Positions 1,718 through 3,700 of a DNA stretch of 64,000 nucleotides are shown piece by piece. A program made the position numbers and the translations under genes. This DNA is from Eledone cirrhosa (Eukaryota): the NCBI GenBank assembly GCA_964016885.1, contig OZ024740.1, forward strand, positions 399,528,001-399,592,000, given 5' to 3'. The notes beneath the pieces were generated by a model. That model was not told the DNA's origin. It saw only the letters and a program-made list of their open reading frames with translations, and made no database searches. Every line of letters starts with the position of its first letter. Positions within the stretch are counted from its first letter, which is position 1.

Positions 1718-1750
<33 letters not shown>

Positions 1751-1751
1751 G

Positions 1752-1780
<29 letters not shown>
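1718..1780. repeat. Compound microsatellite (CG)3(CA)~13(TA)~14
   Basis: Read directly from the sequence. Confidence 0.95.
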
Positions 1781-1784
<4 letters not shown>

Positions 1785-1974
1785 TCAGGTTTGAGGTTCA
1801 CCACTGTATAGAGCTGGTCTATTCCGTATGGTCAATCGTAATGCAATAATATAGAGAGTACTCAACGTAAAGCAGTTCAACCGTCTTTGTTTTTGTAGTT
1901 GGTGGTGCTATTACGGAGTTAAATATTATAATGAAATGACAGGAGGCTGGATTTGTGTAAATCCTTGAAAGGTT

Positions 1975-2044
1975 TATTATACTATGATCATTTCAATGAC
2001 CGGGTTCCGTATGAATCCGGTGATATCATCAGGTATTCGAAATA
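1975..2044 (-). ncRNA. Mirror copy of the putative hammerhead ribozyme on the minus strand
   Basis: Exact reverse complement of 2189-2258, within the left palindrome arm (TCATCAG at 2026-2032). Confidence 0.65.
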
Positions 2045-2188
2045 TAATACGTGAATGTAATAGGTAAAATCCATGGGGCTGAAAATCGAGACCCGGGCGA
2101 CCGGCTGAGGTTGAAGGAACAGAATAGCGGTCGCCCTCGGGTCTCGATTTTCAGCCCCATGGATTTTACCTATTACATTCACGTATTA

Positions 2189-2258
2189 TATTTCGAATAC
2201 CTGATGATATCACCGGATTCATACGGAACCCGGTCATTGAAATGATCATAGTATAATA
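2189..2258 (+). ncRNA. Putative minimal type-I hammerhead ribozyme
   Basis: Stem I ATAC(2197-2200)/GTAT(2251-2254), extendable by TATT/AATA. Core CTGATGA at 2201-2207. Stem II TATCACCGGATTC/GAACCCGGTCATT (10 of 13 positions Watson-Crick) with loop ATACG. GAAA at 2239-2242. Stem III T-[GATC]-A with a palindromic loop. NUH triplet AUA, predicted cleavage after 2250. Caveat: U-U mismatch at the base of stem II. Confidence 0.65.
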
Positions 2259-2310
2259 AACCTTTCAAGGATTTACACAAATCCAGCCTCCTGTCATTTC
2301 ATTATAATAT

Positions 2311-2344
2311 TATATATATATATATATATACACATATATATATA
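2311..2344. repeat. (TA)n microsatellite with a CACA interruption
   Basis: Read directly from the sequence. Confidence 0.95.
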
Positions 2345-3519: not shown

Positions 3520-3700
3520 ATCATCATCGTTTAACGTCCATTTACCACGCTAGCATGGGTTAGACGGGTCGTCCTACTTGACGCAATTTGGGTCAGGTGA
3601 CCATGTCTTACTCATATAGGACTTTCTGCCTATGCTTCTATGGCTGGATGCCCTTTCTAATACCAACCACATTTACAGTGTGGGATGGGTGCTTTTTGTT
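3520..3700 (-). mobile_element. 3' part of an Octopus-type SINE with (GAT)n tail, running directly into the satellite
   Basis: ATCATCATCGTTTAACGTCCATTTACCACGCTAGCATGGGTTAGACGG...TTCTATGGCTGGATGCCCTTTCTAATACCAACCACATTTACAGTGTGGGATGGGTGCTTTT. The tail recurs at 2348-2368 and body motifs at 178-210 and 285-334. Family identity is from memory. Confidence 0.7.

Follow-up and report, generated by a model that had tools for sequence, protein, structure and literature searches.

The window analysed here is a stretch of 64,000 nucleotides from Eledone cirrhosa, and the feature of interest lies near its left end, where two segments of 174 nt (1922-2095 and 2138-2311) are 100% complementary to each other and stand 42 nt apart. 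The original prediction, made from the letters of the DNA, described this perfect 174-bp foldback correctly and set its limits at 1922..2311. The arms are indeed exact, but the insertion to which they belong is larger and asymmetric: it occupies 1778-2311, with the minus-strand arm extending 144 nt beyond 1922, to 1778, and the flanks have no mirror symmetry beyond the 174-nt arms. What looks like a 42-nt "loop" (2096-2137) is ordinary element sequence and part of the plus arm. On both strands the order of reading is the same: (TA)n, then antisense cDNA, then sense. The features of the locus are:

1724..1777, no strand: (CA)n followed by (TA)n, the left portion of the target site
1778..2311, no strand: two-armed, head-to-head, 5'-truncated insertion of a non-coding element of ~2.8 kb
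1778..2095, minus (element sense): arm that ends at site B, its 3' end at 1778
1778..1921, minus: 144-nt "tail", from site A to site B, on the site-B arm only
1857..1919, minus: bulged hairpin predicted immediately behind site A (outer stem of 4 bp, bulge of 2 nt on the 3' side, inner stem)
1979..2036, minus: mirror copy of the type I hammerhead motif, with the cut predicted 3' of 1983
2095..2096, no strand: arm junction at the element's own 10-bp inverted repeat, with short microhomology
2096..2311, plus: arm that ends at site A, its 3' end at 2311, including the 42 unduplicated bases 2096-2137
2197..2254, plus: type I hammerhead motif, predicted cut after 2250, with stems that covary between subfamilies
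2312..2344, no strand: right part of the target site, (TA)n

The foldback is enclosed by a perfect 32-bp AT-rich inverted repeat (1084-1115 and 2625-2656, 1.5 kb apart), possibly the ends of another element. Two copies of a short motif starting with CAT repeats follow, at 2346-2368 and 3521-3540, which we take to resemble the head of a common short repeat. The window from 3666 to 64000 is filled by a 48-bp minisatellite (~1,263 copies), which continues past the window's end.

The insertion belongs to a large family. A search of the 3.0-Gb genome gives 5,356 exact matches to the hammerhead core (0 for a control with the reversed pattern). Copy number of the arm, a check suggested at the outset, is high: the 174-nt arm returns 727 first-look candidates, with more than 40 exact full-length matches among those scored. 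At 11 loci partial tandems form pseudo-LTRs and give a ribozyme-to-ribozyme period of 2,797-3,102 bp, hence a unit of ~2.8 kb, inside which lie repeats of ~510 bp; every tandem copy examined holds fewer than two full units. The unit contains no ATG ORF longer than 86 aa and no single ORF with both a reverse transcriptase (RT) and a GIY-YIG domain, it gives no match by tblastn to the proteins of Penelope-like elements (PLEs), and it has no Rfam match and no tRNA. It is a non-autonomous element, not a coding PLE. Older subfamilies stand at ~83% and ~73% identity. The expectation that the foldback's element would be young, non-coding, ribozyme-bearing, Penelope-related and inserted in (TA)n was right throughout. 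Another short tandem hammerhead family of this genome, with a period of ~540 bp (L038:3430-4448; L117:1036 and 1577), is retrozyme-like and often found beside PLE insertions.

Copies of the element end at two fixed places, both followed by (TA)n. Site A lies 55-63 nt and site B 201-207 nt beyond the predicted ribozyme cut, the two being 144 nt apart. Among 99 copies 35 end at A and 44 at B, while 4 end slightly later, 14 run on or have no TA run and 2 are unreadable. We score the pairing of these ends in the first 100 core matches in genome order, which form 77 loci; 74 are examined, and of the three left out two were already known to be A+B. Two divergent arms with readable ends are present in 34 of the 74 loci, and 33 of these pairs are A+B, one is A+A and none is B+B (P=2e-9 against independent choice of ends); the 144-nt tail is thus on one end only in 33 of the 34. 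The other 40 loci hold no complete pair (B only in 23, A only in 15, unclear in 2), and several young copies are truly single-armed. Two-armed products make up about half of the loci seen. A statement that nearly every copy is two-armed, which came from loci chosen by perfect match, is rejected on this ordered sample. The ends A and B are kept in the oldest subfamily, and the pairing recurs outside the family: all 8 pairs of a related non-coding family are A+B, as are 5/5 of an intact coding PLE family (among the three with Hydra-clade motifs described below), for which the second end of two further insertions was unrecovered.

The same counts bear on whether the foldback might be an artefact of assembly, which we consider the least probable reading of the locus. 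Its arms are 100% identical and no spanning read or contig is found among the 4 runs examined, as such an artefact would have it; yet the flanks are not mirrored, the ends obey the genome-wide A/B rule, older insertions have the same layout with diverged arms, and the family is present in sequencing runs of several organisms (the runs listed as carrying it include no RNA run). As a separate observation, related families with a GCGC helix III loop (L239-L258) share the two-end layout, their tail being shorter (~90 nt), and near-identical foldbacks recur there at 175-210 kb spacing on one contig.

The places where the two arms meet bear on how foldbacks arise. At 35 junctions of young copies the arms overlap by 1-12 nt in 26 (upper bounds, since the overlaps come from BLAST), meet bluntly in 2 and are separated by extra bases in 7. 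Almost all of these junctions differ from one another, which argues that each foldback forms anew; several, the window's included, lie at the element's own 10-bp inverted repeat. This matters for a reading that takes the 390-bp palindrome as the mobile or functional unit in its own right, be it a foldback or MITE-like element or a gene for a hairpin RNA. The perfect arms and the predicted fold of a read-through RNA (-336 kcal/mol) are what such a reading would lead one to look for, but we hold it to be highly improbable because the window's junction is found in no other examined copy, arms range from <100 bp to >2 kb and the ends are asymmetric. The palindrome is a truncated by-product of inserting the ~2.8-kb element, other copies of which fold elsewhere, and its arms are not terminal inverted repeats.

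Comparison of the two arms within each insertion raises the question of whether one was copied from the other. In the 13,651 bases over which the arms of 32 insertions overlap, 119 variants are common to both arms, and 26 of these occur in no other sampled insertion. Differences between the arms number 80, of which 11 recur, mostly within a microsatellite or internal repeat. A-to-I editing of the template was considered and rejected (14 A>G against 13 T>C). The shared variants would fit copying from one RNA, copying from two RNAs of one source locus, or gene conversion between the arms. They are also accounted for, together with the identity of the arms, by self-priming or snap-back, in which a single strand, either an antisense template or one cDNA, folds and copies itself and the endonuclease trims the product to A and B. 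Self-priming was proposed for rotifer Penelope elements in PMC3846280 and PMC8557442 ascribes the tail to resolution by the endonuclease; self-priming and endonuclease trimming are the explanations of inverted and tailed PLE insertions in print. The junctions at the 10-bp inverted repeat, in the window and elsewhere, would suit snap-back too. We nonetheless find it unlikely. The unduplicated centre can lie on either arm (the A arm is longer in 15 loci, the B arm in 16, and the two are about equal in 3; n=34, hand tally), and in the window it lies on the A arm. Four of the 33 A+B loci have a B arm that ends short of site A, so neither arm can be a copy of the other; the presence of A-arm sequence that is absent from the B arm, together with these arms that do not overlap at all, rules out a single snap-back. 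The model would further need a cut staggered by 144 nt, and the putative positioning motif described below is found on the sense strand only.

A type I hammerhead layout is present on each strand, as predicted: at 2197-2254 on the plus strand, with its CUGAUGA core at 2201, a stem II of 13 positions and GAAA, and mirrored at 1979-2036 on the minus strand. Stem II has U-U, C-C and A-C mismatches, and helix III is the palindrome AU-GAUC-AU. A loose core pattern matches at two places only within the 64-kb window, both in the foldback arms. A search of the window with Rfam, named in the original prediction as a check, gives no hammerhead match at the gathering score, nor at E<=10. The claim that a palindromic helix III suits the motif to dimers agrees with the loop being self-complementary in each of three families (GAUC, GUAC and GCGC), and non-palindromic loops are rare (137 matches, GCGC included). 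Stem covariation, the other check, came out in favour of the motif: across 42 aligned copies 88.5% of stem cells are paired, against 26-36% when the partners are slid, and subfamilies differ by double changes in helix I (one pair), helix II (two common pairs) and the helix III palindrome. These double changes are a few inherited events and not 42 independent ones, the number of stem pairs showing them has no excess over shuffles, and the core letters are fixed by the search pattern itself. A U-U sits at the base of helix II in 42/42 aligned rows, where the G10.1-C11.1 pair next to the core is absent, and a covarying G-C/A-U pair lies one step out. The covarying stems and the palindrome kept in three forms argue for some ribozyme function being under selection, and the hammerhead fold is likely to be what is selected. 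In the monomer the active fold is predicted at -3.0 kcal/mol against -13.9 for the best fold, that is 11 kcal/mol above it, in agreement with the dimer-dependent, weak cleavage reported for PLE hammerheads (PMC4209133).

Whether this ribozyme cuts the RNA that is copied into DNA is a different matter, and cleavage of that RNA does not appear to be required by the copy ends. Arms cross the predicted cut site intact, and some exceed one unit and cross it twice. Sequence changes immediately ahead of the predicted cut are seen in 111 copies, compared with 14 at a control position searched with a narrower pattern, but only 2 of the 30 read at the cut site are true arm starts, against 3 of 14 at the control, and most of the others are point changes; there is no excess of arm starts at the predicted cut site. 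By established hammerhead rules a G at the cleavage position blocks cleavage, and three insertions (L374/L375, L377/L378 and L386/L387) carry a G there in both arms, which suggests that source copies with a non-cleavable ribozyme may still be mobilised. These data weigh on a retrozyme route, in which dimeric self-cleavage and ligation would give a ~2.8-kb circular RNA that is then primed at two sites; it differs from the explanation we favour in its template only. Circles are known for short animal retrozymes (PMC7229834), arms longer than one unit that cross the cut site twice are what a circle could yield, and the covarying stems and three palindromic forms of helix III would have a ready use. 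Set against this are the three insertions copied despite a G in both arms, the tandem copies examined, none of which reaches two full units, and the size of reported retrozyme units, 51-972 bp (bioRxiv 2026.07.22.740005). We judge the route improbable, about as much so as snap-back.

What the two ends have in common lies just behind them. Directly 3' of site A is a motif made up of an outer 4-bp stem, a bulge of 2 nt on the 3' side, an inner stem and a tail of the form purine-C-pyrimidine, and in copies that run on the same bulged hairpin appears again 3' of site B (this second copy is absent from the insertion at 1778-2311). The two start 63 and 207 nt after the predicted cut, and in several families copies end 0-8 nt before the motif. 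Within the ~2.8-kb unit and a 4.25-kb coding unit it occurs at A and B only and on the sense strand only, and shuffled sequences give it in 1-8 of 300 cases for these units (1/300 for the ~2.8-kb unit). It stands at both A and B in the young family, the 710-aa coding family and a second coding family, and at A in the related non-coding family and a third coding family, which is without it behind site B; it is absent from the 5 examined 3' ends of a non-Hydra PLE family of the same genome. As a background, 405 kb contain 17 strict matches, of which 11 lie behind a hammerhead-like core. The outer stems vary in a paired fashion between families; since pairing is built into the motif search, position is the real test. 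The motif was defined by eye from the same families, and a relaxed bulge was needed in two older subfamilies. The stem at A is within the predicted best fold, and the tail region as a whole folds no better than shuffles (z=-0.8). We regard the bulged hairpin as a candidate RNA signal that may position the start sites. The non-Hydra family (L037, L193, L218, L256) also inserts in (TA)n, seemingly with two 3' ends and no hairpin.

An element that encodes nothing would need an enzyme from elsewhere. Three coding families in this genome have the motifs of the Hydra clade (RWK, DKT, CxCx5C, CxxC, CxH, plus GIY-YIG at the C terminus, with RWR in two) and match that clade, as PMC8557442 describes it, in motifs, hammerheads and (TA)n targets; the assignment is one by motifs and not by an RT tree. 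All three carry the hairpin motif at A and two of them also at B, so that they share the A/B layout and the hairpin with the ~2.8-kb element. Among their sequence-atlas neighbours part of the members have GIY-YIG and RVT_1; Pfam gives no match on the candidate helper proteins, and solved structures none to the 710-aa protein. The linkage to a PLE RT/GIY-YIG ORF that the original prediction proposed to look for is not seen, as BLAST finds no DNA link between the ~2.8-kb element and the coding families checked. A weak likeness to coding families exists at site A, equalled by 3/200 and 6/200 shuffles in a set of 19 comparisons without correction. Searches with protein sequences from three PLE fragments, and from regions followed up, lead to coding families with different hammerheads, and copies that run past site B continue into more non-coding units, with no coding helper among them. 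The genome holds 84,652 first-look PLE candidates and thus many more PLE families, so the helper may simply be unsampled; we would place it at the level of the clade only, the Hydra clade. Among the coding families, the intact 710-aa Hydra-like PLE at L112:2166-4298 forms partial tandems of ~4.25 kb, has many near-identical copies and carries two hammerhead-like motifs per unit, the first ahead of the ORF and the second within the 3' region. Another Hydra-like coding family (L255:5200-9000 and L296) has a hammerhead that is apparently a U3-A8 core variant (cf. PMC4209133).

Drawing these results together, one-of-each ends, differing junctions and shared variants are most simply explained by two cDNAs, one per strand of the target. 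We therefore propose, with a probability of roughly 70%, twin target-priming in which a Hydra-clade enzyme, supplied in trans, starts at two internal sites of a single uncleaved RNA. This enzyme would cleave a (TA)n tract on both strands, and each cut strand would prime at one site, A or B, its position given by the bulged hairpin immediately 3'. The two cDNAs would copy the same RNA, or RNAs of the same source, running toward the RNA 5' end across the intact ribozyme and stopping independently; their ends would then anneal by a few bases and each would be filled in on the other. The duplicated stretch would be what both cDNAs had copied, and the 144-nt tail the spacing of the start sites. As for the ribozyme, it probably works in dimeric form at some other step, or only seldom, with the copied RNA left uncleaved or re-joined. 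Twin priming is familiar from L1, where a single RNA is primed from both strands of the target and the resulting cDNAs are joined through microhomology; there the two cDNAs copy different parts of the RNA and the second site is opportunistic, whereas in the ~2.8-kb element the two sites have fixed positions and the cDNAs would usually overlap to form a foldback. A more specific version of the proposal, programmed twin priming as the integration route of Hydra-clade PLEs, has a dimeric RT-endonuclease seated on one RNA with two hairpins, one per subunit, and one fixed start per strand; this we offer tentatively, at a little under even odds.

The closest parallels are insertions of endonuclease-bearing PLEs, which are described as having an inverted, 5'-truncated head-to-head copy, partial tandems and a (TA)n target (PMC8557442, PMC3846280), with a tail of 30-40 bp at one end only (PMC8557442). 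The ~2.8-kb element resembles them in its partial tandems, inverted truncated copy, one-end tail, hammerhead near the 3' end and (TA)n, and departs from them in having no ORF and a tail of 144 nt rather than 30-40. PLE hammerheads are reported in pairs on opposite strands, 100-700 bp apart, and the minimal dimer hammerheads of the same paper (PMC4209133) have a long helix II, a short helix I and a palindromic helix III, as here; their usual G-C next to the core is replaced here by the U-U at the base of helix II, and there is no Rfam match. Non-LTR retrozymes (PMC7229834; bioRxiv 2026.07.22.740005) are likewise non-coding, with one type I hammerhead per unit, and PLE-derived or PLE-dependent, but they measure 51-972 bp against ~2.8 kb, and our element occurs as dispersed, truncated inverted pairs, with no long arrays seen. 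In vitro, the Poseidon PLE of Anolis cuts and extends both strands from two internal starts, with no need for ribozyme cleavage (PMC11167929). The likeness is that its two starts, 3' of the hammerhead, define a tail; they are adjacent, in an AC-rich stem-loop, and in the account given in PMC11167929 without a strand difference, whereas the starts of the ~2.8-kb element are 144 nt apart, AU-rich, placed before a repeated bulged hairpin and used one per strand. Both strands use the same starts in that assay (PMC11167929), so the strict A+B pairing is not reproduced there.

Head-to-head PLE insertions with hammerheads on opposite strands are already in print, and the single foldback locus of the window is an ordinary dead-end copy of a known element class. 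The origin of inverted, tailed PLE insertions is named as an open question in PMC8557442 (section 15). The literature searched, largely the main texts of open-access papers, yielded no statement of the one-of-each A+B pairing and no report of the repeated hairpin or of twin priming for PLEs. The value of the present finding is in the family-wide A/B rule and the candidate signal rather than in the single locus: the family supplies natural products in their thousands, with ends that follow a simple rule, and the signal is short enough to mutate, which makes the question testable with an existing type of in vitro assay. If true, programmed twin priming would account at once for the inverted copy of PLE insertions and for their one-sided tail, and it would mean that long non-coding parasites hijack a Hydra-clade enzyme with two hairpins alone. 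PLE reverse transcriptases are the closest relatives of telomerase, and for this reason an RNA element that fixes where copying starts may be of wider interest.
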